From Promethearchaeota archaeon (GTDB lineage Archaea; Asgardarchaeota; Lokiarchaeia; Sigyniarchaeales; SOKP01), in the NCBI GenBank assembly GCA_048940925.1, contig JBHLOC010000005.1, positions 16,978 through 80,977 of the forward strand: a stretch of 64,000 nt of DNA. The letters are read 5' to 3'. Below the pieces are notes generated by a model, which saw only the letters and a list, made by a program, of their open reading frames with translations, searched no databases and was not told the DNA's origin. Below, piece by piece: positions 19-60,448 of this stretch. The translations under genes and the position numbers were made by a program. Within the stretch, counting starts at the first letter, position 1, and each line of letters starts with the position of its first letter.

Positions 19-205
19 TTTTTATGTTTCTCTACATCTTTAATATTTTTATATTCCCATTTCTCGTCAGGTACTCTCTAATAGATATTTACTCTAAGAC
101 TCCTTGTCATTGAAATCTTTCTTCAATTATCCTCTAAATTCGGTGTCATTTTTACTTACCATCTATATCATAAATTATAAATACTTAAGATTCCTAGTGT
201 TTCTT

Positions 206-336
206 ATGGGAAAATGTCCATATTGCAATAAAGGGCTTCATATAGAGGATTTTTCGTAGTCAATCAAAAAGAGATAAAGTTAGGAAAAATTAGGACGACA
301 ATCGAGACACATGAGTTTGAAATAGAATGGATTTAA
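206..336 (+). pseudogene. Frameshifted small CxxC zinc-ribbon protein remnant
   Basis: ATG at 206 gives MGKCPYCNKGLHIEDF then TAG at 257. A -1 shift in the T-run (250-254) continues FVVNQKEIKLGKIRTT to TAA at 336. Confidence 0.5.
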
Positions 337-1037
337 ACCAAAAAAAAAGGTTGAAAAAGGTTTTAAAACATCTAAAGAAGTTAGTAATTTCGATATTCCT
401 TGTGGTTTTAATATGGAGTATTTATATCGGAATTCTTTTTAAAGAAAATCCAAGATTAAATTGCAAGACAATGGTAAATGAGGAAATTACATGGGAAATT
501 GAAAAATTTGAACCAACTGAAACATATCCAGGTGAAATTTATATAAAATTTTTCATCAAATATGAAATCTGGATAAACACTCCTTTACCCTTTATACATA
601 GCTTTGATGGGTGCCATTTAAAACCAAAAGCGGAAGCAATCCTTACAAATACATCTATATCAGATAAAACATTGTTTTATAGCTATGGTTGTTATTTAGC
701 GACAGTACCAGTATTTTATACACCTGGAATTACTCATAAATCAGGATCTATCCATTTTAGGATTAATTACACGGAAATATCAGGATTACCTGAAGGACTT
801 TACACCTTTTGGATAGATTTTGGCGATTTGTACGGGAGAGATGGTATTATAGAATCCTATAAAACCTATATGAGTGTCTCCGAAGATGGAACATCGGTTT
901 ATTCTGATGATACTGTTGATTATACGGTCTGGTTTTGGAGAGGATTTATAACTTCTGCAGCCATTATAACCGGGATTATTTTGATAATTTATATTGGATT
1001 AGTATTTAAAGATAAAATAATCAAACGTCTTAAATAA
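327..1037 (+). CDS. Hypothetical membrane protein (N- and C-terminal TM helices flanking a beta-rich domain)
   Basis: 236-aa ORF with two hydrophobic segments and basic flanks. Confidence 0.75.
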   Translation: MDLNQKKRLKKVLKHLKKLVISIFLVVLIWSIYIGILFKENPRLNCKTMVNEEITWEIEKFEPTETYPGEIYIKFFIKYEIWINTPLPFIHSFDGCHLKPKAEAILTNTSISDKTLFYSYGCYLATVPVFYTPGITHKSGSIHFRINYTEISGLPEGLYTFWIDFGDLYGRDGIIESYKTYMSVSEDGTSVYSDDTVDYTVWFWRGFITSAAIITGIILIIYIGLVFKDKIIKRLK

Positions 1038-1158
1038 ATAGTTTCTTCTATAGAAAAATCCTAGATTATTACTTGCTTATGATGGATTAAGAATAGATTC
1101 ATGAGTTCTATTAAAGATTTTGGGCTACTATCATTTTCTTTTTAAAGTTTTTCAAAGA

Positions 1159-1197
1159 AATTTTCATGAAAATCAGACTCTGAAGTTAACTTTCCAT
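1159..1197 (+). repeat. 39-bp intergenic motif, copy 1 (most diverged)
   Basis: aattttcatgaaaatcagactctgaagttaactttccat. Confidence 0.8.
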
Positions 1198-1707
1198 TCT
1201 AGATGTGTTAAATGCAATTGGCAAAAGTCTTTAAATTTATAGTAATACTTTTTTTATAGATTCTAAAATTGAGATGTAAATCAATTTAGAGATATTATGC
1301 TAAAGATCTATGATCTTTATCAATAATTTGTAATATAATAAGGTGGTATCTAAAAGAAAAAATAGGATTAGTTTAAATTTAAATTTTGAAAATTTAAAGA
1401 GAAAGTGAAAGAGATGTATTTCAAAACTATTTATACAAATGAAAAGACATATTGGATAGGATTTCTTTATGCTGAAACATATATGGAAACTAAAAATAAA
1501 AAAGGGGAAAATGAACATGTATAACGAAATTTTTGTTATTCTTAATTTATCAGCGTTTTGCTGAACAATTAAAATGCTTTTGATGTTCTGAAACATGTTT
1601 GAGATTCCAAATCATCAGTTATTCCCCTCCCTACTCAAAAATTTAAAGATAAGTTTTATTTTTAATAGAACAAAAAAAATTGTCTCTTTCTTTAAAGATT
1701 TCTATTA

Positions 1708-1729
1708 TTCTTTATACTTTCTTAATCGA
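1708..1729 (+). repeat. 22-bp direct repeat, copy A
   Basis: ttctttatactttcttaatcga, identical to 4414-4435. Confidence 0.8.
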
Positions 1730-1835
1730 TATAAATTTTTCAAATATACTTTCTATCCCTAACATAAAATTAAAAAAGAATTTAACAAAATAGATTAATA
1801 TATACAAATCTGGAAAAAAAAATTAAAGTGGTATT

Positions 1836-2570
1836 ATGGAAGAAAAGCTTAATACGATGTATAAAATTGTCCAAGGACTACTAGGTGATATTGTCCCTTC
1901 AAAAACAGCCTTAATTATAGTTGATATGCAAAAATATCAAGTAAAGAAAGATTATGTTCCATATAAATTAGCTAACAAAATTGCTCCAGGAGTTTTCGAT
2001 TATTTTGTAAATGAAGTAGAAAACAAGGTTATTCCAAATCTACAAAAATTAATTAACTTTTGTCATGAAGTTGGAATCACTGTAATATACACAAAATATT
2101 CAAGTTTTATGCCTGATGGAAGTGATCTCTCTAAAAACCTTAAAATTATAAATCAAACCAGTAAAAGTCTCGTAGGAGAAGTTAATTTTCCTTATATCTC
2201 TCACCCTAGCTCTGATATAATTGATGAATTAAAGCCTGAAGATGGAGATATTGTACTACAAAAAAACACGAGTGGAACTTTTATCTCAACAAGGCTTGAT
2301 AGTCTCTTAAAAAATATGGAAATTGAAACAGTTCTAGTCTCTGGAGTTGTAACGAATTTTTGTGTCCATGCTACAGCTCGAGAAGCAAGTGATTATGGAT
2401 TTCAAACGATTATTGTGGAAGATTGTTGTGCAGCCTGGTCTGAAGATATCCATTTAGCAATACTAAAATCATTTGGATTAATTTATGGGAGTATATTACC
2501 ATATGAAAAAGTAATAAAAAAAATCTCAAGAACTATGAAAAAAGCTAAAAAACAATTATTAACTCATTAA
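1836..2570 (+). CDS. Isochorismatase-family cysteine hydrolase
   Basis: ALIIVDMQ, K in LQKNTSGTF and GVVTNFCV give an intact Asp-Lys-Cys triad. Confidence 0.92.
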   Translation: MEEKLNTMYKIVQGLLGDIVPSKTALIIVDMQKYQVKKDYVPYKLANKIAPGVFDYFVNEVENKVIPNLQKLINFCHEVGITVIYTKYSSFMPDGSDLSKNLKIINQTSKSLVGEVNFPYISHPSSDIIDELKPEDGDIVLQKNTSGTFISTRLDSLLKNMEIETVLVSGVVTNFCVHATAREASDYGFQTIIVEDCCAAWSEDIHLAILKSFGLIYGSILPYEKVIKKISRTMKKAKKQLLTH

Positions 2571-2702
2571 ATTTATTGACTAGGATTACTTTAAAATGAT
2601 ATTAAGTAATTATTTAATTTTATTTTCTCTTTCTATTTTTCTTAAAATTTTATTGCAATAATTTACGGAATTTATATAGTTTCCAAATACTTAGATTGCA
2701 AT

Positions 2703-3485
2703 ATGGAGAATGATCGATTAAAGTCAATTCGAGTAATTACTGATAATGAAGCTATTTTCTATGATTACATTAAAAATAACTTCGCTGAGTACTTATTTTT
2801 CCACGTTGACTATGCTCAATATCCAGAAAGCACTGAAATATATATGGCGTTAGATAATGAAGAAAAAATTCAAGGAATGGTCTTAATCTGGAAAGAACGG
2901 AGAATTGAATTGAGAGGATCTATAGAAAGTCTTGAATTTTTATTAAGTGTAAAGCATTATAAACCGATATCTATATCTGGATTTGATAACCATAGGGAAT
3001 TGATTTCAAGATATTTCCCAGATTATAAAAAAAAAATTGCAAGGTATCGAATGAGGTTAAAAAAAGGAGATCAAAAGGATTTTGAGAAATACACATTTGA
3101 TGTACTTTCTGATTCTCATAAAGAAGATATAACATCCTTAATGAGAATAGCTGATCCTATTTTCTGGGGTTCAAGCGAGCCAGAGAATATCATGATTGAT
3201 GAAAATAATATATGGTATGGTATAGTGGAAAAAAAAAAATTGAGATGTATGATTGGGATATTGAAATATCAAAAGATAGGATATGTAACAACTGTTGCAA
3301 CTCACCCAGACTACTGGACCCAAGGATATGCAAGTTCGTTAATATCGTCGGCCTTAAAAGATTTATTTCGAGAAAAAGAACAATGTTTCCTCAATGTAAG
3401 GGTCGCCAATGCTCCTGCTATCCATACCTACAAAAAATTAGGATTTTCAATTTGCAATACTCATTATTCTTATGAGAGATTGTGA
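2703..3485 (+). CDS. GNAT-family acetyltransferase (C-terminal GNAT domain)
   Basis: VATHPDYWTQGYAS and NAPAIHTYKKLGF motifs. Confidence 0.9.
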   Translation: MENDRLKSIRVITDNEAIFYDYIKNNFAEYLFFHVDYAQYPESTEIYMALDNEEKIQGMVLIWKERRIELRGSIESLEFLLSVKHYKPISISGFDNHRELISRYFPDYKKKIARYRMRLKKGDQKDFEKYTFDVLSDSHKEDITSLMRIADPIFWGSSEPENIMIDENNIWYGIVEKKKLRCMIGILKYQKIGYVTTVATHPDYWTQGYASSLISSALKDLFREKEQCFLNVRVANAPAIHTYKKLGFSICNTHYSYERL

Positions 3486-3499
3486 TATTTATACCAATT

Positions 3500-3762
3500 T
3501 TGTATCTTGATTTTTTAAGCGAGGGGATATAATTACTGATGGTAAATTTTAATACGTTATTCACTTGAATTTTCAATGAAATTAATCTCTGAATAATTAA
3601 AGACATAGGAGCATTAGGAGAGAGGTAATTTTTATTGTATTCAATATTAAACGATCTACGATCCTGATTAAGATTAATAGTAGATATAGATGTTAATGAG
3701 AAAGCGAAAAGAGTTCCTAAAATGATTAAGTTTGATTTTATGTTCCATTTTTTTTCACTCAT
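3500..3762 (-). pseudogene. Truncated N-terminus of a secreted/surface protein
   Basis: Signal-peptide-like start MSEKKWNIKSNLIILGTLFAFSL. The frame then runs into the convergent GNAT gene; the 3' limit is approximate. Confidence 0.35.
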
Positions 3763-4041
3763 ACCATTTAATTTTCGCCAAGAGTGTATTATCTCTTAAA
3801 TAAAATGAAACAAATCAATACTTAACATTTTTGTCAATTATTCTGAGCTTGAAAAAATTTTTTTCCTTTTCTACTTAGCGAAGATACTTCAGATAATTCT
3901 CTTATTTTAAAGAAATTTACATCTTTAGGATTCTACAATTACGTAAAATTTTAAATGCCTTGTCAATAAATTATACTTTATACCGAAATCTAATCCAAAA
4001 AAAATAAATTTAAAAATCAAATTATAAGGTGGTAAATAAAA

Positions 4042-4356
4042 ATGATGTTTATTACATATTGGGAGATAAATCCTGATTTTGATCCAGCAGAATTGGCTGA
4101 AATAGCTCAGGAACTTATAAGCAAAAAGGTGTACCCTGCTGAAGGTGTTAAAGAACATGCATTTTATATTAGTACCTCTGATTATTGGGGTATTGGTATA
4201 GATGAGGCCGATAGTGAAGAAGCTCTGGCAAGAAATGTTAATATGTGGAGAATTGCTAAACCTGGTTTTATTAAATTCATAAAATCCACTCCTGCAATGG
4301 AAGTTGTTAAAATACTCCCAGTATTAGTAAAGTTGAAAAAACAAATAAAAGGGTAA
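4042..4356 (+). CDS. Small dimeric alpha/beta-barrel protein (DUF3303-like)
   Basis: MFITYWEIN..WGIGIDEADSEEAL..TPAM pattern; GGTGG RBS upstream. Confidence 0.7.
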   Translation: MMFITYWEINPDFDPAELAEIAQELISKKVYPAEGVKEHAFYISTSDYWGIGIDEADSEEALARNVNMWRIAKPGFIKFIKSTPAMEVVKILPVLVKLKKQIKG

Positions 4357-4413
4357 TAATAAAGAAATTTTAGATCCTTCTGAAAAATTTTTAGCTCTTT
4401 AAATTCAATTTTT

Positions 4414-4435
4414 TTCTTTATACTTTCTTAATCGA
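4414..4435 (+). repeat. 22-bp direct repeat, copy B
   Basis: Identical to 1708-1729. Confidence 0.8.
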
Positions 4436-4551
4436 ACAAAAAGAAGAACTCAAAATTTTAAAAATATATATCTAATCTTAATATTAAGCTTCTTTAACTT
4501 AAAAGATTATGTAGGAGAGTCAGACTCTTTAGTAGTCTTATTTTTCGTAGA

Positions 4552-4590
4552 AATTTTCATTGAAATCAGGTGCTGAATTTACCTTTCCAT
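4552..4590 (+). repeat. 39-bp intergenic motif, copy 2
   Basis: aattttcattgaaatcaggtgctgaatttacctttccat. Confidence 0.92.
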
Positions 4591-4623
4591 AAACTTTAGT
4601 GGAAGTAAAAAAAAAGCTCAAAA

Positions 4624-5592
4624 TTATTCCCATAAATTTGAAGGTTCAAATATATTTGAATAATAAGGTCGTAGAAATTTCTGCACGCTATAACACAAAT
4701 GACACTTATCGGCATAACCCTTTAATGGCTTATATCCTTTTTCAATAGCCAGCTCAAGGAGACTACCCACCCCTCCTTTACCCATGACTTTGCCTATTAT
4801 AGGATGTTTTCTTGGCTTAAACTCACTAATTATTTTTAATAACGAATCTTTTTTAGCATTTCCCAAACAAATACCTTGACATCCTTGGCTGAAAACCCAT
4901 CCATTAGGATCTATCATATACATAGGCGCCCTAAATATAGAGCACCTTTCTGAAGGTATGGAATTCATCGGATAATATTCTAAAAGATTTTTTATGGCTC
5001 GTCCTTTTACCTGTATTGGACTTTTTATTATTTGGCAGAACTTAAACTCATTATAGATGCTTTTACATATCTTGTTTGTTTCGTTATTGAAAGAATTTGA
5101 TTCATTTGGGGCACCTACAACTTGGGCAATAATAAGAATATTTTCTATCTCCGCTTTATGGGCTGCTTTAATTGCCTGCTTTACATTTTTAAGAGGAATA
5201 AACTCTTGGTGGAAGGCATCAACACTAAACCCAATTAATTTAACTCCAACTTCTTTTAGTTTTTGAGCATATTTCTTAGCAATCTCATCATCCTTACCCC
5301 AATAACCATTAGTTGGTAATCCTATCTTCGAAATATCAAACTTTTTTGCCTCTTCAATGAGACGGATTAATAAATTAAAGTATAATAGTGGTTCGCCACC
5401 AAAAAAATTAACCTCACATATATTATAATTTTGAGTAATATCTTCCAAATACTTTCTTACATCCTCCGGTTGAATCGTAATATCTTCTTGATTCGGAGAT
5501 GCTTGAAGTGCACAATGTTTACATTCATTTGTACATTTGTAAGATACTAAAAAAGTAAGCATATTAATTGTTTTTTTCGTACTTTCACTCAT
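4624..5592 (-). CDS. Radical SAM protein with C-terminal Cys-rich (SPASM-like) region
   Basis: CTNECKHC (CxxxCxxC), GGEP, TNG, SVD motifs and C-terminal CHLC. Confidence 0.93.
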   Translation of the reverse strand: MSESTKKTINMLTFLVSYKCTNECKHCALQASPNQEDITIQPEDVRKYLEDITQNYNICEVNFFGGEPLLYFNLLIRLIEEAKKFDISKIGLPTNGYWGKDDEIAKKYAQKLKEVGVKLIGFSVDAFHQEFIPLKNVKQAIKAAHKAEIENILIIAQVVGAPNESNSFNNETNKICKSIYNEFKFCQIIKSPIQVKGRAIKNLLEYYPMNSIPSERCSIFRAPMYMIDPNGWVFSQGCQGICLGNAKKDSLLKIISEFKPRKHPIIGKVMGKGGVGSLLELAIEKGYKPLKGYADKCHLCYSVQKFLRPYYSNIFEPSNLWE

Positions 5593-5599
5593 ATTTATT

Positions 5600-6181
5600 T
5601 CACCTTTTTTTCTTCATTTCCTCCTTAATTTTCAAAATCGTTTCATCAAAATCTTTAATATAACCATTCATTCTTTCTATATTCTCTTTAATTGAAGCTC
5701 TCATATCTTCAAGTAGTTTGAGTCTTTCCTGAAGTGTTAAGTTTCCCTTAAACTTGTCTGGTTTCATTGCTGTTGGCAACATTTGTATATTTGGCACATC
5801 TTCGTAATGTTCAAGTTCTTCAATATCAATAGAACCTCCATTTTGTATAGCAGATGACAAAAAGCGACGATACATCTTTCTTATCTTTCTTTGAGACTGT
5901 CTCATAAGTTTAAGGGCTTGACTCCCCATATCCGTAATTTCATATATCTTTTTGTTCTTTTCTTCTTCTTTTATCCTTATAAATCCTTTCTCCCTTTGAT
6001 TATTTAATATCCAATATAAGGATGATGCAGTAGGTTTCCACATTCCTAAAGTGCGTTTTTCAATCTCTAATCCTATTTTATATCCATGAGAAGGACTAAT
6101 CTCAAGAATAGAAAGAACAAAAATATTTACAAAATTCTTTTTCAACACTTTTTCAAAGTTTTTGTGATAATTTTCAACCAT
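5600..6181 (-). CDS. PadR-family transcriptional regulator
   Basis: HGYKI..SLYWIL..KKIYEITDMG winged helix plus C-terminal coiled coil. Confidence 0.9.
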   Translation of the reverse strand: MVENYHKNFEKVLKKNFVNIFVLSILEISPSHGYKIGLEIEKRTLGMWKPTASSLYWILNNQREKGFIRIKEEEKNKKIYEITDMGSQALKLMRQSQRKIRKMYRRFLSSAIQNGGSIDIEELEHYEDVPNIQMLPTAMKPDKFKGNLTLQERLKLLEDMRASIKENIERMNGYIKDFDETILKIKEEMKKKR

Positions 6182-6229
6182 TTTTACTTAAACTCAAATT
6201 TAATTTATATTTGATTATAGATATTATTA

Positions 6230-6252
6230 CAGTCACCGTATTACAGTGACTG
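6230..6252. promoter_or_regulatory. Palindromic operator candidate upstream of padR
   Basis: CAGTCACcGTA-T-TACaGTGACTG near-perfect dyad about 50 bp upstream of the padR start. Confidence 0.6.
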
Positions 6253-6455
6253 ATATATCTTTTTAATATTTAAAATTAATCTATAATCCAATTTCCAAAG
6301 AATAGGGGATTACTTTCAAATAGGTTTAAAACTCATTTTTGCCTTAAATAATATAAGACAAAATAAGCAATATTTTATCTCTAAAAAATATTTAATCACA
6401 TGACAGTGAATTTTATATATGCTTTTTAAGCTAAATTATATTATTTTTTCAAATA

Positions 6456-6494
6456 AATTTTCATTCAAATCAGACGCTGAATTTACCTTTCCAT
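6456..6494 (+). repeat. 39-bp intergenic motif, copy 3
   Basis: aattttcattcaaatcagacgctgaatttacctttccat. Confidence 0.92.
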
Positions 6495-6526
6495 AAATTT
6501 TAGTGGAAGAAAAAAAAAGCTCAAAA

Positions 6527-6660
6527 TTAGTCCCATATATTTGAAATTTCAAGTATATTTGGATAATAAGATCGTAGAAATTTCTGTGCGCTATAACACA
6601 CATGAGATTTATCTGCATATCCCTCTAATGGTTCATACCCTTTTTTAAGGGCTAGTTCAC
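6527..6660 (-). pseudogene. 3' fragment of a paralog of the radical SAM gene
   Basis: ELALKKGYEPLEGYADKSHVCYSAQKFLRSYYPNILEISNIWD aligns with the C-terminus of 4624-5592; the downstream DNA is also duplicated. Confidence 0.85.
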
Positions 6661-6910
6661 CTCCGCTTAGATCCTTCATTAATATGTTTGATTTAAAAAA
6701 TAACAACTTGCCGTATGGACCTGTGCTGCAGGACAAACTGAAAAACCAATATTTCAAATTAAAAGGATTTTCGAAAATAATATAGTAGATACAATTCGCT
6801 TAATTGAACCACTCAAAAAGGATACCGATGAAGCAAAAGCGATAGAAAGGGCAAAAAAAATTGCTCACTCATAATTTAAAATTTTTATACTATTGTGTTT
6901 TTAAGCATTT

Positions 6911-8098
6911 ATGCCTAAGATTTTTGAAGGATTAAGAATCCTTGATTGTTCCCAATTTATTAGCGGTCCTTGGGCGAGTATATTTTTCGCTGACCAAGGA
7001 GCAGAAGTGATTAAAATTGAACCTCCTCCATTTGGAGAAAGCTTTCGACTTTTTACGGTATTCGATAAATCTATTTTTCCCTTATTTTCGATTTTAAATA
7101 GAGGTAAGAAATCGGTTTCTTTAGATTTGAGAAAGGATGCCGCTAAAGAAATATTTAAAAAACTCGTGAAAAAGTCCGATGTTCTTATTGAAAACTTTGT
7201 AAAAGGAACTATGGAGGGTTGGGGGCTTGGATACGATATTTTAAAGGAAATCAATCCAGAATTGATATACGCTAAGATTTCTGGATATGGAAACGAAGGA
7301 GTAGACCAGTATACTAGCAAGACTGCTTTTGACATCGTGATTCAAGCGAATTCAGGTGTCTTAGACGCGATGGATATTCACGAAGGACCACCTAAATTGC
7401 CCTTTGCAGATTATACTGCTGGCCATGTATGCGCGATCGGGATAAGCCAAGCACTCTATTACAGAGAAAGAACGGGAAAAGGGCAATTTATTGATATTTC
7501 TATGCATGATCTTATGTTTGCGATTAATATAAGAAGTCAGGCAAAAGAATTCATAGGGTTGGCTTCAAAGCTTGATAGTTCTAAATGGTTACCTATTTAT
7601 AACCAATATCCGTGTAAGGATGGACTCATCGCAATGACAACGCTTACAGAAGGCCAGTGGGTTCGATTATGTGAGGGTGTTTTAAAGAAACCTGAATTGG
7701 TTAAAGACCCACGGTTCGACAATGTAATCAAAAGATTTGACGAAGTTGCAGTTCTGGATGATATCATAGTAGAATGGTCGAAGAACCTTACTAGAGACGA
7801 AGCTATTGAACAATTAGAGGCCGTGCGTATTCCTTGCGCAAAATCATTAAAGATGACTGAGGTTCACCAACATCCCAACCTTAAGGCTAGAGGGATGATG
7901 GTTGACCACTTTGACTTCAGCAAGTGGGGAGTAGAAAAAGCAACAATACCAAACCGTTTAATTAAATTTTCCGAGACAGAGGGGAGTGTAGAAGCTCCAG
8001 GACCAGAGTATGGTAATAATAACGAAGAAATTTACTGCGATTTGTTAAACTACCCGAAGGAAGAGCTGAAAAAGTGGAAAAGAAAAAAAATTATTTAA
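6911..8098 (+). CDS. CoA-transferase family III (CaiB/BaiF)
   Basis: GLRILD..GP..ADQGAEVIKIEPP, LNRGKKSV, DVLIENF, catalytic D in PFADYTAG. Confidence 0.95.
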   Translation: MPKIFEGLRILDCSQFISGPWASIFFADQGAEVIKIEPPPFGESFRLFTVFDKSIFPLFSILNRGKKSVSLDLRKDAAKEIFKKLVKKSDVLIENFVKGTMEGWGLGYDILKEINPELIYAKISGYGNEGVDQYTSKTAFDIVIQANSGVLDAMDIHEGPPKLPFADYTAGHVCAIGISQALYYRERTGKGQFIDISMHDLMFAINIRSQAKEFIGLASKLDSSKWLPIYNQYPCKDGLIAMTTLTEGQWVRLCEGVLKKPELVKDPRFDNVIKRFDEVAVLDDIIVEWSKNLTRDEAIEQLEAVRIPCAKSLKMTEVHQHPNLKARGMMVDHFDFSKWGVEKATIPNRLIKFSETEGSVEAPGPEYGNNNEEIYCDLLNYPKEELKKWKRKKII

Positions 8099-8247
8099 AT
8101 TTAATCCCACATATTTGAATTCTTCGTGGAGTGGATCTGACATCTTTTTATTATGAGTAATAATCGGATTTAAAAATTAAAAAGATACATTTCCTTAAAA
8201 GCATCTGCACTACAATTTTGGTTTAAGAATTTTTAGTTTTTAAAAGG

Positions 8248-8286
8248 AATTTTCATTGAAATCAGACGCTGAATTTACCTTTACAT
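8248..8286 (+). repeat. 39-bp intergenic motif, copy 4
   Basis: aattttcattgaaatcagacgctgaatttacctttacat. Confidence 0.92.
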
Positions 8287-8352
8287 GCATCTTTCAACTG
8301 ATATGAAAACCACAATCGCCGAATCGAAACCAGAGAAAATATTTCCAGAAAC

Positions 8353-9003
8353 TTAAGGTAATGAAAGAACTCGTACTTCAATTTCTTTTTCATCTTTGAG
8401 TAAATCAACCAACTCTTGTGGATTAGTTTTCCCTTGATGGTATGGATATACAATTCGTGGTCGTATTACCTTTACACATTCTGCTACTTCGTCGGGAGTC
8501 ATTGTATAAGGCAAATTCATTGGTAGAAAAGCAATGTCTATATCTCTTAATTCCTTCATTTCGGGAATACATTCAGTATCCCCCGCAATATATACCCGTT
8601 TACTAGCAAACGTTATGATATATCCATTTCCTTCACCTTTTGGATGAAATTTCACACCCAGACTCCGTTCTCTTACGATATTATATGCAGGAACTGCTTC
8701 TATTATTAATCCTTCTATTTCTCTTCTATCACCATTCTTCATTACAATATAATCTGTTAATTGCGTTCCACATAATTCCGTTCCAATTATTTTTGTATTA
8801 GTTTTTTTTAAACGATTGATCAAATTTGATTCCAAATGGTCTCCGTGATGATGAGTAATGAGAATTAGATCAGCTTGAGGATACTTACTATAATCAGTCC
8901 GGCTGATAGGATCAACATGAATGACCAAACCCCGGAATTTAAACATTATACTTCCATGAATCGTTGGTGTAGTAATTAATTCATCTTTTGAAACCTCTAC
9001 CAA
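8353..9003 (-). CDS. Metallo-beta-lactamase-fold hydrolase
   Basis: THHHGDH, YIAGDT, PYH motifs. Confidence 0.92.
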   Translation of the reverse strand: MVEVSKDELITTPTIHGSIMFKFRGLVIHVDPISRTDYSKYPQADLILITHHHGDHLESNLINRLKKTNTKIIGTELCGTQLTDYIVMKNGDRREIEGLIIEAVPAYNIVRERSLGVKFHPKGEGNGYIITFASKRVYIAGDTECIPEMKELRDIDIAFLPMNLPYTMTPDEVAECVKVIRPRIVYPYHQGKTNPQELVDLLKDEKEIEVRVLSLP

Positions 9004-9048
9004 TTTTCTATTCTCCTCTTATTATTTATTAATATGGTTGAGTTATTC

Positions 9049-9315
9049 TTATGATTCAATTTTTGTTCGAGTAACTTTGAAAACTACGGGATTATTCGGA
9101 TCTGGACAACAAACCATTGTTGTATCCTTATCTTGGGACCAAGGAAAAGAACCATCAAATCTTAATGTGGTGATAGACGGATAAATCGAATTATACGCAG
9201 ACTGGCAAATTTTACCGACATCATCGGGATATTTAAATTTATCACCAACTTTATGCCCTCGAGGGCATTCTCCCCTTTCGAGGATTTTAACAATTTCTAA
9301 AGAAATTTCATTCAT
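9049..9315 (-). CDS. Small Cys-rich protein (TIGR04076-like)
   Basis: GECPRGHKVGD..ICQSA..CCPDPNNPVVF. Start placed at the ATG after a GGTGG RBS; the ORF track extends to 9357. Confidence 0.85.
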   Translation of the reverse strand: MNEISLEIVKILERGECPRGHKVGDKFKYPDDVGKICQSAYNSIYPSITTLRFDGSFPWSQDKDTTMVCCPDPNNPVVFKVTRTKIES

Positions 9316-9427
9316 TATTTTTCCACCTTTTTTTGATATATAATTTAGTCTTTTCATTAATTAAACTATTTCTTATCTTAAAGAAGTTCTCCAATATATC
9401 TAAAAGTACTCTCAATTTTTTCAAAGG

Positions 9428-9466
9428 AATTCTCATTGAAATTAAACGCTGAATTTACCTTTCTAT
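9428..9466 (+). repeat. 39-bp intergenic motif, copy 5
   Basis: aattctcattgaaattaaacgctgaatttacctttctat. Confidence 0.9.
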
Positions 9467-9592
9467 TTGAGTGTTTTTTAAAATGAATTTTTATAGAAAT
9501 TTTATATAAGTGTTTAGTTATATAGTGAATAATTTTAAATCTTGAAAAACGCTAAATTCATTATTAGAAAAGAAGATTTAGGTTGAGTATTA

Positions 9593-11104
9593 ATGGGTGA
9601 AGAAATCAAAATAGGAGGATTTTGCGACCCTCAGTTTGAAGAAGTTAAAAAAACTTTTATATCCCATTTTAAAAAAGGTTGGGAGGATGGTGCATCATTT
9701 GCAGTTACAATGAACGGGAAATTCGTCGTGGATTTATGGGCAGGATATGCTGATGAAACTCATACAATACCTTGGGAAAAAAATACAATTGTGTGTGTTT
9801 ACTCAACAACGAAAGTAATGGCTGTGATATGTGGATTGATCTTATCAGATAGGGGGTTACTGGATTTTGAAGCACCCGTTTCAAAATATTGGCCAGAATT
9901 TGCCCAAAATGGAAAGGAAAAAATGCCAGTAAAATACATATTCGCTCATATGTCAGGTCTTGCGGGAATTGAAGAGGTAATTTCTGCAGAGGATTATTAT
10001 GATTGGGAAAAAATAACAAAACTGTTAGCAGAACAAAAACCATGGTGGGAACCAGGAACAAAAGCAGGTTATCATGCAATTACTCATGGTTATCTAATCG
10101 GAGAATTAATCAGGAGGGTTACCGGTAAGTCGCTTGGAACTTTTTTTCGAGAAGAAATTGCGGAACCTTTGAAAGCTGATTTCCATATTGGATTGTTAAA
10201 GGAAGATGATAATCGGGTAGCTGAATTAGTTACAGACCCGCAGCAATCAGGAGGATCTTTCCTTAGAATGTTTCAAGGTATTGCAGATCTTGCTAATAAA
10301 TCTTATATGGTTAAGGAAGAAATCGGAGATTGGGAGAAAAAGTTTCAAATTAAAGCTGGAGGAGAAGATGTTTGTTATTTAAAAACACATAATAGTGAGT
10401 TGTTTTTTGAGGAAGGAAAAGTTCAAAATCCAGATGGCATATTTAGGACACCAAAGAATCGTTCTAATATGATATTCTTATTATTTCCACATATAAAAGA
10501 AACTCCCGAATTTACAACCCGGAATTTACAAATTGAATGTAAACCAGAATATGTTGACAAACTAAAACGAATTTTTAAACACATTATAACTGATGCGATG
10601 AAAAATGGGAGTATTGGAATGAAAATGTACTTGAATGCAATGTCTCTTAGAAAACGAACATCAGATTGGGATTGGAAATCAGCAGAGATACCTGCGATTA
10701 ATGGACATGGTAACGCTCGTTCTACAGCAAAAATAGGCTCCATAATCGCGTGTCAAGGAGAAGTGGATGGAATTAGGTTTTTATCAAAACATACATGTAC
10801 AAATGTACTCATGGAAGAGCAATTTAAAGGAATTGATATTGTAAATGGCGGATTGGAACGTTATGGTATGGGCTTAGGATTAAAAAGCGAAAGAAGGCAA
10901 TTTCCGAATGACACAGTATGCAATTGGGGAGGAACAGGGGGGAGTAGAGTAATTATGGACCAAAAAAATAAAATGTCATTTGCTTATATTATGAATCGAA
11001 TGAGAGTTCAAACACCTGAAGAAACTAAAAAAAATATTATGATTTCAGATACACGTGCCAATAATCTTGCCATAGCAGTCTATAAATCGCTTGGTCAACT
11101 CTAA
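9593..11104 (+). CDS. Serine hydrolase of the beta-lactamase class C / esterase family with an internal insertion
   Basis: YSTTK (SxxK), GYHA, WGGTGGS motifs; about 110 extra aa in the middle. Confidence 0.92.
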   Translation: MGEEIKIGGFCDPQFEEVKKTFISHFKKGWEDGASFAVTMNGKFVVDLWAGYADETHTIPWEKNTIVCVYSTTKVMAVICGLILSDRGLLDFEAPVSKYWPEFAQNGKEKMPVKYIFAHMSGLAGIEEVISAEDYYDWEKITKLLAEQKPWWEPGTKAGYHAITHGYLIGELIRRVTGKSLGTFFREEIAEPLKADFHIGLLKEDDNRVAELVTDPQQSGGSFLRMFQGIADLANKSYMVKEEIGDWEKKFQIKAGGEDVCYLKTHNSELFFEEGKVQNPDGIFRTPKNRSNMIFLLFPHIKETPEFTTRNLQIECKPEYVDKLKRIFKHIITDAMKNGSIGMKMYLNAMSLRKRTSDWDWKSAEIPAINGHGNARSTAKIGSIIACQGEVDGIRFLSKHTCTNVLMEEQFKGIDIVNGGLERYGMGLGLKSERRQFPNDTVCNWGGTGGSRVIMDQKNKMSFAYIMNRMRVQTPEETKKNIMISDTRANNLAIAVYKSLGQL

Positions 11105-11118
11105 TTTTTATGTTTTAT

Positions 11119-12105
11119 TTACCAGAGATGATGAACTGTTTTTTTAATATCTTTTTCATAGATTTCTTGAATTTGAACCATTTGATCATGTGATAATGGC
11201 TCTAAATCTGAAGCTTGAATATTTGATTCAACATGGAATACTTTGCTTGCACCAGGAATGATGCAAGAAACAGCATCAAACATTAAAATCCAACGTAATG
11301 CATATGGAGCAAGATTTTCAGGATTTCCAAAGACTTTCTTTATTTCTTCAACAGCTTTTAATCCTATTTCATAATCCACTCCTGAAAATGTCTCACCTTT
11401 ATCAAATGCTTGTCCATTCCTGTTAAAATATCTATGATCTCCTTCTTTGAATACAGTGTCCTTGGTGAATTTTCCAGTAAGTAACCCACTTGCTAATGGT
11501 ACACGAACGATAATGCCAATATTTTTCTTTTTAGCTTGTTCAAAAAATAATTCGCTTGGTCTTTGCCGAAACATATTAAAAATAATTTGTACAGTTGATA
11601 CATTTGGGAATTCAATAGCTTTTAATGCTTCTTCAACTTTTTCCACACTTACCCCATAATTTTGAATTTTCCCTTCATCTTTTAAGGAATCTAAAATATC
11701 AAAGACCATTGGTCTATAATATACTGCTGTTGGAGGACAATGAAGTTGAAGCAAATCAATTGTCTTAATCTCCATATTCTTTAAACTATCATCAACAAAT
11801 TTTCTAATATTTTTTTCATTATATCCTTCAGTATTATGAGGATCTAAACGTCTGCCACATTTGGTTGCAACATAGACTTTTTCATCAATAGATTTTGAAA
11901 AAATACCACAAAAGTGTTCGCTTTGGCCATCTTTATACACATCAGCAGTGTCAAAAAAATTGATTCCATTTGAAACTGCAATAGATAGTGTATTTTGAGC
12001 TATAGTCTTATCAAATGGTTCACCCCATTTACCTCCTAATTGCCATGTTCCAAGTGAGATCTCTGACACTCTATATCCAGTTTTTCCTAAAACTCTATAT
12101 TTCAT
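11119..12105 (-). CDS. Aldo/keto reductase
   Basis: VSEISLGTW, FFDTADVY, VATKCG, DLLQLH, IPGAS. Confidence 0.95.
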   Translation of the reverse strand: MKYRVLGKTGYRVSEISLGTWQLGGKWGEPFDKTIAQNTLSIAVSNGINFFDTADVYKDGQSEHFCGIFSKSIDEKVYVATKCGRRLDPHNTEGYNEKNIRKFVDDSLKNMEIKTIDLLQLHCPPTAVYYRPMVFDILDSLKDEGKIQNYGVSVEKVEEALKAIEFPNVSTVQIIFNMFRQRPSELFFEQAKKKNIGIIVRVPLASGLLTGKFTKDTVFKEGDHRYFNRNGQAFDKGETFSGVDYEIGLKAVEEIKKVFGNPENLAPYALRWILMFDAVSCIIPGASKVFHVESNIQASDLEPLSHDQMVQIQEIYEKDIKKTVHHLW

Positions 12106-12373
12106 AATATTAACCATTAAAATTTCTTACTTTCTCAAAAAAAAAATCTTTTAACTGAAAATCTTTACTACAATTTGAAAACTTTCACACAAAATACACT
12201 AAGATATGCTAAAATAAATAGTTTGTAACCAAAAATGAATTCTTAAGTAATTAAATTAAATTTTTGAAAACGTCAGATAAGACAATTTTGAATATTTCTT
12301 CATTGGTAGCTACCTTAACTCAAAAATAAATAAAGATCTCCCCTCTTTATATTACACTTCTTATTTAGTAAAA

Positions 12374-12790
12374 TCATGAGACTAAGTCAGATTCTTTAGA
12401 AGTCTTCTTTTTAATATTGTCTAATCTTACAGTTAAATTTGTGGTCTTCATATAATTGGAAAGATCATGCTTAACTTCTTCTTTATTAGTCTTTATTGAG
12501 TGAGCAGCTTTTAATTGTTCCGAAAAATTAGTTAAGGATTCTGTCTTATCATCTGCAGGAAGTTTTTGAATAAATTTATTGGATAAGTCTTTAATAAGTT
12601 TATCTTTGGTTGGATCTGATTTACCATATCTATGACCCATAAAACTGCATTGGACAGCAATTTCGTTATCTGATTCATAATATCCACACCTACGGCAAAA
12701 TAAATCTTGTAAATAAAGATTTGTTTTTGGACACAAGACTAAGTCAATTCCTATTTTATCTGGTCTAATCGGTATTTTTTTAATGTTCAT
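12374..12790 (-). CDS. Hypothetical protein with an N-terminal Cys cluster
   Basis: CP..CRRC..C pattern; ATG after GGGGG. Confidence 0.65.
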   Translation of the reverse strand: MNIKKIPIRPDKIGIDLVLCPKTNLYLQDLFCRRCGYYESDNEIAVQCSFMGHRYGKSDPTKDKLIKDLSNKFIQKLPADDKTESLTNFSEQLKAAHSIKTNKEEVKHDLSNYMKTTNLTVRLDNIKKKTSKESDLVS

Positions 12791-12847
12791 ATAATCCCCC
12801 TTTCTCAACTAAATTTTAAAGAACATATGAGGTTATTAATTATTAGA

Positions 12848-12871
12848 TTATTACTTTCGATAAAGTAATAA
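12848..12871. promoter_or_regulatory. Perfect 10-4-10 inverted repeat between divergent genes
   Basis: TTATTACTTT-CGAT-AAAGTAATAA. Confidence 0.55.
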
Positions 12872-12995
12872 AAATCTGATATTAAAAATTTATTTTATTT
12901 AAATTTACTCTTAATTTTTAATTCCTTATTAAGTAGTATTAGGCAAAATTATAAATATGTAAAGGAATATTCAATACCCATAGAAATCATAATGA

Positions 12996-13706
12996 AGGGT
13001 ATGGATTCAAATTTCAGAATATCTAACATTAGCATTATCAATTGAATATATAATTATCATTCATAGAGAATCGAAAGAGATTATTTATTATAAGACAGCA
13101 GGAGATTTTGATCCAGATTTCCTTGATATTTTTCGAAGTTCAATTCAATATGAGCTGTTAGATTTACCCTTAGAAGAAGGAGGATTTGAACAAGCAACTC
13201 TTGAAGGTAAATATTTGATAACCAGGGTGGGTAAAAAAATTTGGGTTACATTAGTGACCAATGAAAGACCAGTTATATTATCAAGGGAAGCATTAACATC
13301 CTTTTCTGATAGATTTGAGAGACTATATAAGCAAGAGCTTCAAGATTTATATACAAAGCAAAAGGGAGATATATCAATTTTTCGGCGAAAATCATTTTAT
13401 AAAGTGAGTGTGGATATGATTGCGGATGATGAATTACACTTAAAACTTACTTTACCATATAAGTTGGGTTCCGCTAAAGGAAGGAAAATTTCTTCAAGTG
13501 GAAAACAAATATATCAAATTGCAAAGGATATTGCTCATAAAAATAAAGGGCGTGTTTTTCTTAGAACTGTCCTTATTATAGCGAATGATTCTTTAGAATT
13601 GGAAATTACAAAGATTGCCGATTTAATCTTTGATTTTGTCCAAAGGGAATTACTTGTACCTATGCCTTTAGAAGAGTTAAAAAAGAAATTTACCATACAC
13701 AATTAA
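12996..13706 (+). CDS. Longin-like domain plus C-terminal winged-helix-like protein; start unresolved
   Basis: Frame is open from 12996 (..SIEYIIIIHRESKEIIYYK..), well upstream of the first canonical start (TTG 13215). Confidence 0.6.
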   Translation, partial: RVWIQISEYLTLALSIEYIIIIHRESKEIIYYKTAGDFDPDFLDIFRSSIQYELLDLPLEEGGFEQATLEGKYLITRVGKKIWVTLVTNERPVILSREALTSFSDRFERLYKQELQDLYTKQKGDISIFRRKSFYKVSVDMIADDELHLKLTLPYKLGSAKGRKISSSGKQIYQIAKDIAHKNKGRVFLRTVLIIANDSLELEITKIADLIFDFVQRELLVPMPLEELKKKFTIHN

Positions 13707-13815: not shown

Positions 13816-15084
13816 ATGGACTTAATAGAAATTGTTGGACTTAATAAAAATCATGCTAAGAAATTAGAAAAAGAAGGAATCCTTAGTGTTGAGGATCTTT
13901 TACCACTTACTAAAAGTCAAATAAAGAAGTTAGCAAAAAAATGTGGAATTCCCACTAATTTAATTGATACCTGGCAAGAACATGCTGATTTATTACAAAT
14001 TCAAGGCATGAATCCAGAAATCGCTAATGCGTTGAATATCATAGGTGTAGATTCAGTAAAAGAATTTGCTCATAGAAACGCTAAAAGTACGTTTGAAAGA
14101 TTAAAGCAATTAAAAAATGAAAATCCTGATGTACTTTCCAAAGAACCTTCTCAAAAGGATGTAGAAAATTGGATTAAAGATGCAAAAAGTCTTTCTGGAG
14201 CCCCAACAAAAAAACCAGTTAAAAAAGAAAAAGAAACTCCACAACCTGTCACTCCTGTTGAATATGTGCCAATTGAAGTATTTAGAGGTGATTATGGAGA
14301 TTATGGTCCAGATTATTGGAATAACAAATGGGAAAAAGCACCAATAATTTATACAGGAAGAGCATTACGTGGAGAATCGTATAATAAAGAAATAGACGTA
14401 GATGTTAAGTCATTTATTAAAAAAAATGATGCTATTCTATGGCATGTTATTAATCATGTTGGTTTAAGGAGAGATACTGCTAATGAGACAGCCTTTGCAA
14501 TCCAAAACTTCGTCTGCAATTTTCTGAAATATAAATATGATGAGATTACATCTGATTGTCCCGAATTCTGGCAGTTTCCATTTGAATCCGTTCAATCTGA
14601 AATTGGTGACTGCGAAGATGGGGCAATTTTAATAGCTTCTTTGCTAATTAATGCAGGAATACCATCATTTCGCGTAAAAGTGTGTGCTGCTCAAGTTTTT
14701 GCTGATCCTGTTGTAGTTCCTTCAGATGAAGAATTAGGAGGACATGCTTATTGTATATATCTTGCGGATAGACCTGATTCTGACAGAAAACTCGAATGGG
14801 TTATTTTAGATTGGTGTTATTTGCAAGATCCTGAAGTTAAAATCGAAGAAAAACCCTTAGCGAGGAATGGAGGTCAAGAAGGAGCATATAAAAATATTTG
14901 GTTCACTTTTAATGATGAATATAGTTGGTCGCAGAGTGCTTTTGAAATTAAAGAAGGAAGAATAAGCCAAAATAGAAAAACCAAGCAAGAGGATGTTTTA
15001 GCTCCATTAGAAGATGTCTTAAAGCATTTAGCAGGAGAGGAGCTTAAGAAGATCTTCAAGAAATTTAATATCGAAATGGAATAA
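13816..15084 (+). CDS. DUF4332-like (helix-hairpin-helix) domain fused to a transglutaminase-like cysteine protease domain
   Basis: N-terminal IVGL..HAKKLEKEGI and WQEHADLLQIQG; C-terminal GDCEDGAIL, GHAY, VILD triad. Confidence 0.8.
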   Translation: MDLIEIVGLNKNHAKKLEKEGILSVEDLLPLTKSQIKKLAKKCGIPTNLIDTWQEHADLLQIQGMNPEIANALNIIGVDSVKEFAHRNAKSTFERLKQLKNENPDVLSKEPSQKDVENWIKDAKSLSGAPTKKPVKKEKETPQPVTPVEYVPIEVFRGDYGDYGPDYWNNKWEKAPIIYTGRALRGESYNKEIDVDVKSFIKKNDAILWHVINHVGLRRDTANETAFAIQNFVCNFLKYKYDEITSDCPEFWQFPFESVQSEIGDCEDGAILIASLLINAGIPSFRVKVCAAQVFADPVVVPSDEELGGHAYCIYLADRPDSDRKLEWVILDWCYLQDPEVKIEEKPLARNGGQEGAYKNIWFTFNDEYSWSQSAFEIKEGRISQNRKTKQEDVLAPLEDVLKHLAGEELKKIFKKFNIEME

Positions 15085-32326: not shown

Positions 32327-34729
32327 TCATGTTGAGTGCATCATTAACCATTGAGTAAATAATTGTGATATTTGCATCATAAAATTAGCATCATCAATAG
32401 AACCATTTTTTAATTGCAATACAAGATTCCCTATTTCATTCTTTTTACTTTCATGAAATTGCCTTAATCTATCAGATTCCACGATACCTTCTAGTATTCC
32501 CATAAATGTATCCCAATCTATAGTTGTGGGAACACTAACAGCTTCCTCAGCTACTTCCACTTTTTTAATCTTATATAAGGGATGCTCTTTATAAAATTCT
32601 TTTACATATTCATAGATCTGCTCACAAACCCTTTCAAATTCTTGTGGACTAAAATCAATACCAGGTTCTTGTTTGAGCCCAATAGACATAATATCAGACC
32701 AAGTAACATCTGTTCCTTTCATGGGCAAAACAGGTACCTCATACTTTTTTGAGAGTTCTAATTCATGAGCACAATCGACTGAATTGAATACAGATTTATT
32801 AGTACCTAAGAAGAAGACAACATCACTTATCGGAACATTTTTGTCCATGAATTCATCAATATTACCTGATAGGTCTTGTTCACAGAGAAGTACGTCATAC
32901 ACTTCAGGTTTAGCCTCTAAATAATTACCTAAATCAGATAAGCGATATGGTTCATAGTCTACAACTGCATGAGAAATGAAAATTGACATGCATGATCTTT
33001 GTTTAAAATAATCTCGAAGTGTATCTAAATCGCGTTTAGCTAATTGCTTTTCTTGACTCGATAAAGGATTATCCTCTAAGTTTAAAATTTCTAACGCTTC
33101 TAATGGCCATAATACATATGGCAATTTCTCGAATTTATTTTTATTAAGATTTAAACTCTTAATGTTAGAAAATCCCATGCTTTTTGGCAAAATTGTCAGT
33201 TCATTTTCCTCTAAATTAACATATTCTAGTTTTTCACACTGACCAAGAGATTCTGATATTGAAATTAATTTATTTCTACGAGCATCTAAAACATTAAGAG
33301 AATTCAGTTTATTGAATTGATCAGGTAATCTCTCTAATTTATTTTCATTTATATTTAATTTTTCTAATGAGGATAAATTACAAATTTCAGAAGGTAAGTT
33401 TAGTAATTGATTTTGATCTAAATCTAATTTTTGTAAGTTTACTAATTCTCCTATACTAGAAGGTAAGGTTTCAAGTTGATTATTAGATAAATATAATTCT
33501 CTTAATTTCTCTAACTTTCTAATACTCATAGGTAAACTTTTTAGGTTGCCTTCGGTAATTTTCAAGTACCACAAATAATTTAATTGTCCTATTGAATCGG
33601 GTAGGGATTCTAGAGGTGTTCTGCTAATATAAATATATTCCAGTTTTTTAAGCTGACCAATGTTAGCTGGTAATTGAGATAATTTACAATCACTAATAGT
33701 AAGACGTTGTAGTCCTTTCATTAGGGCAAATGATTCAGGTAAAGAAAAAATGTTATTCCCACTTAAGTCAAGGCCAAATACTTTATCTAAATTGCTTATC
33801 GATTCAGGTAATGTTTCAAGTTGGTTATTTGTTAAATTAATAGTAGCTAAATTTGTTAGATTGCCAATGGATTCAGGTATCTCTTTAACTTGATTATTAT
33901 CTATACGAAGATTAGTTAATGATCTTAAATTACCGATACTAGAAGGAAGAGATTCGAGTTTATTATTTTTAACGAGAAGAACCTTCAGATTTAACAATTT
34001 ACCAATAGATTCAGGTAAACTATGCAAATCTAGAGAACTAATTTCTAAGTTCTCAAGTGCAGTGAGATCTCCAATTGAATCTGGTAATTGAGTAATGTTA
34101 TTTACTCCTATATCAAGAGAATTAAGTGATTTAAGCTGTCCTAGTATTGTAGGTAACTCTGTTATTTTATTATGACCAAGTGCAAGTTTTCTTAGAGCAT
34201 GTAAATTATAGATATTTTCTGGAACATGCATTAATCTGTTATCACTTACGTCGAGTTCAATTAAGGTTGAACAAGCACCAATTTCAATTGGTATATCTCT
34301 TAATTTATTAGAACGAAGATCTAATTTTTCTAGATTCTTGAAATTAGATATCCAGCTTGGAAGTACTTTCAACTCATTAACGCCTAAGCTTATTTCTCTT
34401 AAAGATATACAATTTGCCATACTTGAAGGAAGTTCTGTTAATTGATTTTGAGATGCTCCTAACCATTCTAAGCTAGTTAATTCCCCAATAGAATTTGGTA
34501 GATTCTCAATTTTGTTCCCATAACAAAGTAATGTTTTTAATTCTTTGCAATTTCCTAAATTTTCAGGTAAGTTATCAAGATTACCTCGAGTAATTTCAAT
34601 TCTGATAACATGATTATCCTCCACCCAGAAATTATTAGAACTCCAACTTGATCCTACTTTTTGTTCTAAATCCTTTAATACTTCTACTTCTTCATTCGGT
34701 AATGTAAAATCCATATATTGGATACTCAT
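32327..34729 (-). CDS. LRR (about 22 repeats)-TIR protein with catalytic Glu
   Basis: 23-aa LxxLPxSIGxLxxL repeats; TIR from aa 581: SIFISHA..DVVFFLGTNKSVFNSVDCAHELE (E656). Confidence 0.88.
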   Translation of the reverse strand: MSIQYMDFTLPNEEVEVLKDLEQKVGSSWSSNNFWVEDNHVIRIEITRGNLDNLPENLGNCKELKTLLCYGNKIENLPNSIGELTSLEWLGASQNQLTELPSSMANCISLREISLGVNELKVLPSWISNFKNLEKLDLRSNKLRDIPIEIGACSTLIELDVSDNRLMHVPENIYNLHALRKLALGHNKITELPTILGQLKSLNSLDIGVNNITQLPDSIGDLTALENLEISSLDLHSLPESIGKLLNLKVLLVKNNKLESLPSSIGNLRSLTNLRIDNNQVKEIPESIGNLTNLATINLTNNQLETLPESISNLDKVFGLDLSGNNIFSLPESFALMKGLQRLTISDCKLSQLPANIGQLKKLEYIYISRTPLESLPDSIGQLNYLWYLKITEGNLKSLPMSIRKLEKLRELYLSNNQLETLPSSIGELVNLQKLDLDQNQLLNLPSEICNLSSLEKLNINENKLERLPDQFNKLNSLNVLDARRNKLISISESLGQCEKLEYVNLEENELTILPKSMGFSNIKSLNLNKNKFEKLPYVLWPLEALEILNLEDNPLSSQEKQLAKRDLDTLRDYFKQRSCMSIFISHAVVDYEPYRLSDLGNYLEAKPEVYDVLLCEQDLSGNIDEFMDKNVPISDVVFFLGTNKSVFNSVDCAHELELSKKYEVPVLPMKGTDVTWSDIMSIGLKQEPGIDFSPQEFERVCEQIYEYVKEFYKEHPLYKIKKVEVAEEAVSVPTTIDWDTFMGILEGIVESDRLRQFHESKKNEIGNLVLQLKNGSIDDANFMMQISQLFTQWLMMHST

Positions 34730-59284: not shown

Positions 59285-59593
59285 TTTTAAGCACTTTGTT
59301 ACAGTATTAGATTGCAATTTTTTCAAATTAATAAAGATTACTACATTCTATTGTTAAACAATAGTTGTGAGACTAATCTATAAGTGTTGGAACGATTTTA
59401 AAGATGAATTGAAGAGGATATAATATTTCTGCTGAAAACTAATTAATTCTCAGATTTGCTACTTTATGTTTAACCTCCCATCTTCGAAAGTAAAGTTTTT
59501 TATCTTTTTAATTTGGTTTTAATTAATCATATTATCATGAAATGAATCTTAATTAGAATTTGATCGAGCTTTTTTATCAATTTTAAAGGTACA

Positions 59594-60349: not shown

Positions 60350-60448
60350 AATACAAAGATAACGATATTGATCATAAAAAGATAATTATAGATTAGAATT
60401 AAATTAAGAGAAACTAAGTTGATAATTACTCAACATTAAAAAACTAAA

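Follow-up and report, generated by a model that had tools for sequence, protein, structure and literature searches.

The stretch of DNA analysed here (the window, 64,000 nucleotides) is contig C18 of G000, our handle for a 4.8-Mb Lokiarchaeial metagenome-assembled genome (MAG) with 30 % GC, and carries a row of small accessory genes that is divided into cassette-like modules by a short, repeated and always co-oriented motif (other genomes are likewise given G numbers, their contigs C numbers and fetched loci L numbers; G006 is the closed chromosome CP070831). An earlier note, made from the letters alone, had described five same-strand copies of a structured 39-bp motif and regarded them as recombination or attachment sites of an integron-like gene-capture array. 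All five copies were recovered at these places by both pattern and profile searches, scoring 46–57 bits with nhmmer against a profile built from 261 copies, and the genes around them are convergent, tandem, or divergent as described. Three of the five lie within two mismatches of the original 39-mer, for which shuffled window sequence gave 0 matches, and none of the five copies is expected by chance. The remaining 54 kb was likewise correctly said to be devoid of a further full copy, as the best nhmmer match there has an E value of only 0.23. Overlooked, however, were two degraded sites within the array, namely a decayed copy and the remnant of a right end on either side of an acetyltransferase gene (Table 1). 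Since these add to the five intact copies, the array once had at least seven sites, which delimit seven to eight modules. Neither a tRNA gene in the window nor an Rfam 15 match at the gathering score was found.

Several of the modules have close relatives elsewhere. The leftmost one (window 147–1193) is 91.5 % identical to another contig of the same assembly (C48:1666–2712), and this homology ends at the right end of copy 1. The acetyltransferase (GNAT) module is 81–83 % identical to single-gene cassettes bounded by two motifs in C72 of G000 (13829–14788) as well as in L037, L110, L133, and L141; while both of its sites have decayed in the window, it is a clean two-motif cassette in those other places, including C72. 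The left flank of copy 4 corresponds to the promoter region of a tetratricopeptide repeat (TPR) cassette found in 12 other loci, and the 102-aa gene of module f stands alone between two motifs in G024.

Table 1. Sites and modules of the array in the window (ORF, open reading frame; SAM, S-adenosylmethionine; CoA, coenzyme A; MBL, metallo-beta-lactamase).
Feature	Position	Strand	Content	Basis or remark
Leftmost module	147–1197	+	236-aa gene 327–1037; motif copy 1	gene without Pfam match
Motif copy 1	1148–1197	+		46.6 bits; by eye, a decayed long-form extension appears to adjoin its right side
Module a	1198–2612		98-aa ORF 1300–1596 (−); isochorismatase-family gene 1836–2570 (+)	ORFs, Pfam
Remnant of decayed copy's right end	2613–2633	+		aligns before the same GNAT gene in L110, L141, L037, L133
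Module b	2634–3602	+	GNAT acetyltransferase cassette, gene 2703–3485	
Decayed motif copy	3549–3602	+		nhmmer match 3558–3594, 17.6 bits, E 1.6e-4
Module c	3603–4590		DUF3303 gene 4042–4356 (+); motif copy 2	Pfam, profile
Motif copy 2	4541–4590	+		profile and pattern search
Module d	4591–6494		radical-SAM gene 4624–5592 (−); PadR regulator 5600–6181 (−); motif copy 3	Pfam
Motif copy 3	6445–6494	+		profile and pattern search
Module e	6495–8286		radical-SAM 3' remnant ~6510–6757 (−); CoA-transferase III 6911–8098 (+); motif copy 4	repeat D4, Pfam
Module e, promoter and first codons of TPR-cassette gene	~8105–8230	−		match of copy 4 left flank
Motif copy 4	8237–8286	+		profile and pattern search
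Module f	8287–9466		MBL-fold hydrolase 8353–9003 (−); 102-aa gene 9049–9357 (−); motif copy 5	
Motif copy 5	9417–9466	+		profile and pattern search
Module g	9467–11115	+	beta-lactamase-family (PF00144) 503-aa gene 9593–11104	downstream motif lost here

Module shuffling and spread of the motif

More widely, 130 modules between successive motifs have a median length of 1.1 kb and contain a single gene in 70 % of cases. Their genes face either way relative to the motif (94 minus versus 86 plus) and often have promoters of their own, visible as conserved upstream regions inside the cassettes. Among the cargo are NosD-type beta-helix proteins, a carboxylesterase, alpha/beta hydrolases, a luciferase-like monooxygenase, and TPR proteins. 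As many as 18 module types, for example the alpha/beta hydrolase and GNAT types, recur at equal length with different neighbours. The clearest case is the carboxylesterase module (1917–2034 bp), which occupies four contexts, one of them on contig C60 of G000, and in which similarity extends from the T-run of the left motif to just past ACCTTTCCA of the right motif.

A joint of this kind also lies within the window. Module f (8328–9466) is 93 % identical to contig C9 of G013, where its context is unrelated (the rest of 60 kb of C18 has no match to the 34 kb of this contig that were fetched), and in four genomes its similarity goes no further than the motif's right edge. Module g (9416–11115), in turn, is 93.6 % identical to contig C147 of G067, where it is bounded by two motifs, and here homology begins at the left edge of copy 5. 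Within copy 5 itself, the left arm and the loop bases match G013, whereas the bases after ACCTTTC match G067. From these alignments, copy 5 is a recombinant joint between a G013-type left module and a G067-type right module. This partner pattern puts the strand exchange within the final ~15 bases, ending ACCTTTC, and the motif hence belongs to the right end of each module. The carboxylesterase cassette behaves alike, and it is these two single cases that narrow the crossover this far; over all pairs, near-invariance of the core allows no tighter bounds than the left arm on one side and the bases following ACCTTT on the other. Immediately to the right, window 11113–12123 and 12374–13700 form a mosaic, segments of which match different contigs in different relatives; breaks beyond 11115 fall at gene ends with no recognizable motif, and the first gene there (11119–12117, minus strand) encodes an aldo/keto reductase.

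Pairwise comparison of the 261 copies gave 105 pairs that have just the left flank in common, 201 that have just the right flank in common (a class partly due to the shared long-form extension described below), and 2 with both, and the ends of BLAST blocks accumulate at the edges of the motif. These comparisons place the breaks in homology between genomes exactly at the motif. The earlier note had proposed to give up its reading if synteny breakpoints fell elsewhere; since they coincide with the motif, that reading stands on this point. The same counts bear on the possibility of a selfish repeat inserted into intergenic DNA, similar to repetitive extragenic palindromes (REPs) or MITEs (miniature inverted-repeat transposable elements), which would suit a short, intergenic, multi-copy, lineage-restricted, and partly palindromic motif. 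Insertion of such a repeat would, however, leave both flanks syntenic, as is seen in only 2 of the 308 flank-sharing pairs. Outside the motif there is furthermore no conservation, and hence no sign of terminal inverted repeats or target duplications, and the copies are strictly co-oriented within arrays. We therefore regard this explanation as very unlikely, with the limit that genes of the REP-associated tyrosine transposase (RAYT) or IS200 type were not searched for.

G000 has roughly 30 good copies on at least 12 contigs; they often lie close to a contig end, and those of one cluster all point the same way. Scans for a 32-nt core (up to 3 mismatches) gave matches in 50 of 53 genomes of the genus and in 36 of 42 of a sister genus, with sporadic occurrence in a further seven genera of the family; 16 genomes from three other families of the order gave none. 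When species genomes were scanned for the exact pattern, the matches were almost exclusively in Promethearchaeota (Lokiarchaeia) MAGs, and the exact motif was not found in the viral contigs of IMG/VR. Within the 123 fetched loci, all copies (227/227) share the orientation of their own locus, and arrays on either strand occupy six places of the closed chromosome CP070831. The motif is accordingly clustered, with no fixed distance to gene starts, a distinction that the earlier note had asked for. One locus, L069 (DATKTW010000066.1), comes from a MAG labelled as a Nanopelagicaceae bacterium and carries the motif together with Lokiarchaeial cassette genes. The bacterial label is probably due to mis-binning, and wrong labels may likewise account for several matches listed under Hod-, Hermod-, Thor-, or Odinarchaeota.

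Sequence constraint on the motif

Columns 13–47 of the site, a block of 35 bp, hardly vary across the two genera, except for one freely variable central base (T in 119 copies, G in 103). The motif had been called structured, and the two 4-bp dyads with 3-nt loops are indeed present, with variation concentrated in the second loop. They do not behave as conserved helices, however: among 239 distinct copies, only 0–2 compensatory changes per stem pair were counted, the outer AAAGG/CCTTT pairing is broken in 75–92 copies, and the left arm exists in two main versions while its supposed pairing partner is invariant. Because there is no covariation, the attribute "structured" is not supported, and near-invariance of 35 bp together with uncompensated changes in the stems rather fits a duplex DNA site read by a protein than a folded RNA or single strand. 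A small structured RNA or 3'-untranslated-region element, to which the dyads and their variable second loop would lend themselves, is therefore extremely improbable; in addition to the many broken pairs, no Rfam family reaches threshold and the position relative to genes is not fixed.

Readings of the motif as a C/D-box small RNA, a CRISPR, an origin recognition box (ORB), or a promoter were rejected on account of spacing, copy identity, and variable gene context. A coding repeat was rejected as well: one minus-strand frame (KVNS) has no stop within the motif, yet it runs on into an ORF of at least 100 codons in only 16 of 271 copies (0 in the other two frames), so that it is the start of a gene in a minority of copies, mainly of the last gene of the integrase units introduced in the next section. 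In L208:2138–6622 (G042:C168:12138–16622, minus strand), a motif copy lies inside an open KVNS frame of 1494 codons that joins an upstream part of ~1000 codons to the body of the last gene of an integrase unit. This may represent an in-frame gene fusion across the site.

The linked integrase operon

The protein that would read the site is suggested by the surroundings of a subset of copies. An extension to the right that is common to 24 copies (the long form) consists of a hairpin with a 7-bp stem, a TATA-like box, a Shine–Dalgarno sequence, and a start codon, and proved to be the upstream region of a gene, here called gene X, for a ribbon–helix–helix (RHH) protein of 172 aa (PF21983, NikA-like N-terminus), which is described as an RHH plus winged-helix-like protein. 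Gene X overlaps by 4 nt a gene for a 302-aa tyrosine recombinase (PF00589, E 5.6e-24), and the motif lies at the same distance upstream of this operon in all 14 contigs with readable upstream DNA. Full operons are present in G019, G042, and G059, as well as in more than 10 metagenome contigs at 85–92 % identity. The recombinase reaches 96 bits with the XerA model NF040815 (cut-off 220) and an E value of 2.8e-16 with PDB 5hxy; its PF00589 match spans profile positions 2–159 of 172, and candidates for the catalytic R-K-H-R-H/W-Y residues were recognized by eye in integrase P0001, which is encoded at L155:13059–13964 behind a gene X at L155:12544–13062. More distant homologues have a diverged or partial motif at the corresponding place.

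Integrase units bounded by two co-oriented motifs measure 3.7 kb (L182), 5.1 kb (L176), 6.3 kb (L181), 6.8 kb (L177), and 9.3 kb (G042:C168), the last of which has two rare substitutions in common at both ends, and such units occur in tandem in L155 and L181. Stumps of the 5' part of gene X are found beside a motif in many genomes, in G000 on contig C60. In the whole G000 assembly no such integrase was found, and the statement that the window itself contains no recombinase is correct: the assembly has only a XerA-like gene on contig C41, away from the window, and a broken resolvase. The latter (C79:1055–1462), its only resolvase-type gene, carries an in-frame TGA. As candidate agents, serine recombinases were rejected because only 5 of 54 genomes of the genus possess them, and additional tyrosine recombinases because most genomes carry only the Xer-like one. 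Two further observations touch on the operon. On contig C84 of G000 (~7495–7560), a half site composed of the right end of the motif, the long-form hairpin, and the TATA-like box precedes a 286-aa gene. In L162 (G043:C79, ~5440–7091), a 26–45 % identical RHH-plus-integrase pair directly adjoins a tRNA gene (recognized by eye), which implies that some elements of this family target tRNA genes.

Direct observations are the repeat itself, the uniform orientation and the spread of its copies, the shuffling of modules that ends at it, and its physical linkage to the integrase operon. The motif shows two features of an attachment (att) site: direct repeats bound both integrase units and 130 integrase-less modules, and the integrase gene adjoins a site. 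We consider it probable, with considerable reserve, that the motif is the core att site of a Lokiarchaeial family of integrative elements and that the window holds an array of this family devoid of an integrase. According to this model, the 302-aa Xer-like integrase, co-transcribed with the RHH plus winged-helix-like protein, would read the motif as double-stranded DNA and would cut and join at it. Elements with the layout att–gene X–integrase–cargo would insert at existing att copies, and small packets with one att copy each but no integrase would be moved in trans, presumably as circles. The right side of each packet would end with a T-run plus motif, strand exchange would take place in the right-hand ~15 bases ending ACCTTTC (the exact cleavage points being conjectural), and serial insertion followed by decay would lead to co-oriented arrays. 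The array in the window would then be the product of such insertions in a genome without the enzyme.

An alternative is that the motif is kept for another role, such as T-run terminator, insulator, or regulator site, while homologous recombination shuffles the modules and the integrase operon is a mere passenger. Oligo-T is an archaeal transcription termination signal, a T6 run at the left edge of the motif is nearly invariant, and plus-strand cassette genes stop 16–60 nt ahead of it; by analogy, this T-run probably terminates rightward cassette genes. For such a task, however, a T-run alone would do and 35 invariant bases would not be needed, and the motif occurs between convergent, tandem, and divergent genes alike. 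Exchange at a low rate could be sustained by 50 bp of identity, and most genomes with many copies lack such an integrase. On the other hand, the operon stands at a fixed distance from the motif in 14/14 contigs, integrase units are bounded by motifs, and diverged integrases have diverged motifs. Overall, we judge this alternative unlikely.

Several points nevertheless weigh against the att-site model. The integrase was detected in far fewer genomes (6 of 52 in the genus, 19 of 131 in the family) than the motif (50/53 and 36/42 in the two genera); most arrays are accordingly without a resident enzyme, so that homologous recombination between the 50-bp repeats could do part of the shuffling. No recombination product or excised circle was seen, and a search for empty sites with the flanks of integrase units yielded no clean case among the fetched loci. 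The usual architecture of two inverted arms of 9–13 bp around a 6–8-bp spacer is not clear in the site, and the motif is absent from some module ends, namely that of the G013 copy of module f and window 11115. Misjoins in MAGs could also be hidden in the data, but the repeat is shorter than the final assembler k-mers given in the contig titles (k127, k141) and the closed chromosome CP070831 carries the same arrays.

A wider reading, which we offer tentatively and hold to be slightly less probable than its negation, is that Lokiarchaeia possess a gene-capture platform of their own, independent of integrons, in which a Xer-derived integrase and its RHH partner, carried by small mobile units, would move single-gene cassettes by the hundreds between att copies within and between genera (cassettes for hydrolases, surface beta-helix proteins, acetyltransferases, and regulators), and that this would be a main route for accessory and bacterial-type genes. 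As part of such a platform, the open minus-strand frame and the adjacent, possibly bidirectional TATA-like box could provide captured leftward genes with a start codon and a promoter. If true, it would constitute a gene-supply route of the archaea closest to eukaryotes.

Relation to known systems

Integrons are reported to be enriched in Asgard MAGs, mostly as clusters of attC sites lacking integron integrases (CALINs) (Ghaly et al. 2022, PMC9668308), and the arrays described here resemble them: co-oriented sites end mostly one-gene cassettes of ~1 kb, a tyrosine recombinase is linked to the site, arrays occur without a resident integrase, and the same cassette is found in different arrays. 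It is nonetheless hardly credible that the window holds a canonical CALIN of this kind. In line with the remark in the earlier note that attC ends are lacking, the R'' (RYYYAAC) and R' (GTTRRRY) boxes are missing, with neither AAC nor GTT on either strand of the conserved 50 nt, and it is the sequence that is conserved, not a structure, which leaves the folded-strand signature unsupported. Neither any gene of G000 nor the linked integrase passes the cut-off of the integron-integrase model TIGR02249 (51 bits for the latter versus 265). The genes, instead of being co-oriented and promoterless, face both ways about equally and often have their own promoters, and the arrays occupy several chromosomal places; since the integrase rides on units inside the arrays, there is no fixed intI–attI–Pc platform. 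Every defining integron feature that was tested failed. The overall interpretation in the earlier note is thus upheld in part: the motif stands as a junction of the recombination or attachment type, by which accessory genes are divided into cassette-like modules, whereas "integron-like" holds by analogy only and "structured" falls.

A parallel in architecture is offered by the tycheposons of Prochlorococcus, tyrosine-recombinase elements that integrate repeatedly at one short att and leave islands composed of rows of modules parted by att copies, with integrase remnants; the elements are rare and transient, the islands universal (Hackl et al., bioRxiv 10.1101/2020.12.28.424599). The Asgard arrays likewise show modules separated by a repeated motif, integrase remnants, and elements rarer than islands. 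In contrast, tycheposon att sites are partial tRNA genes beside a full tRNA gene at fixed islands, while the Asgard site is not a piece of a tRNA and its arrays lie at several chromosomal places, with mostly single-gene modules of ~1 kb and an Asgard host. By analogy, the system would be placed functionally between integrons/CALINs and tandem-accretion islands of the tycheposon type.

The linked integrase is most similar to XerA of the XerA/dif system, yet falls far below the 220-bit cut-off and, unlike XerA, belongs to the accessory genes, occurs in several copies in some genomes, and has an RHH protein as its partner. Direct att repeats also bound successive elements in the composite islands of staphylococcal cassette chromosomes (SCC) at rlmH (orfX) and in elements of the cis-mobilizable (CIME) type, where a recombinase is carried by some elements only and serves the rest in trans. 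The recombinases of SCC elements are of the serine type; SCC and CIME elements alike are anchored at one place, a housekeeping gene's 3' end, and are much larger. The Asgard arrays share with them direct repeats and, according to the model, trans dependence, and differ in enzyme (from SCC), anchor, and size.

Literature searches yielded no account of the repeat, of the integrase–site pair, or of any cassette system of Asgard archaea other than integrons. The large genomes of these archaea contain many horizontally acquired genes, the arrival route of which is little known, and a single 35-bp signature now finds the flexible gene pool of two Lokiarchaeial genera along with one candidate enzyme pair amenable to bench experiments. 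Should the integrase recombine the site, it would represent a second way of capturing cassettes, distinct from that of integrons, and perhaps a compact tool for site-specific recombination in archaea. The arrays are also relevant for work with MAGs, as they are located at contig ends in many assemblies, including G000.

Elsewhere in the window, two adjoining genes of ~800 aa on the minus strand (32327–37107) have a 58-nt internal repeat family (D3) in common, which suggests leucine-rich-repeat-like proteins. At 59580–61204, two paralogous 251-aa genes stand in tandem, ~78 % identical over 300 nt and 855 nt apart (repeats D1 and D5).

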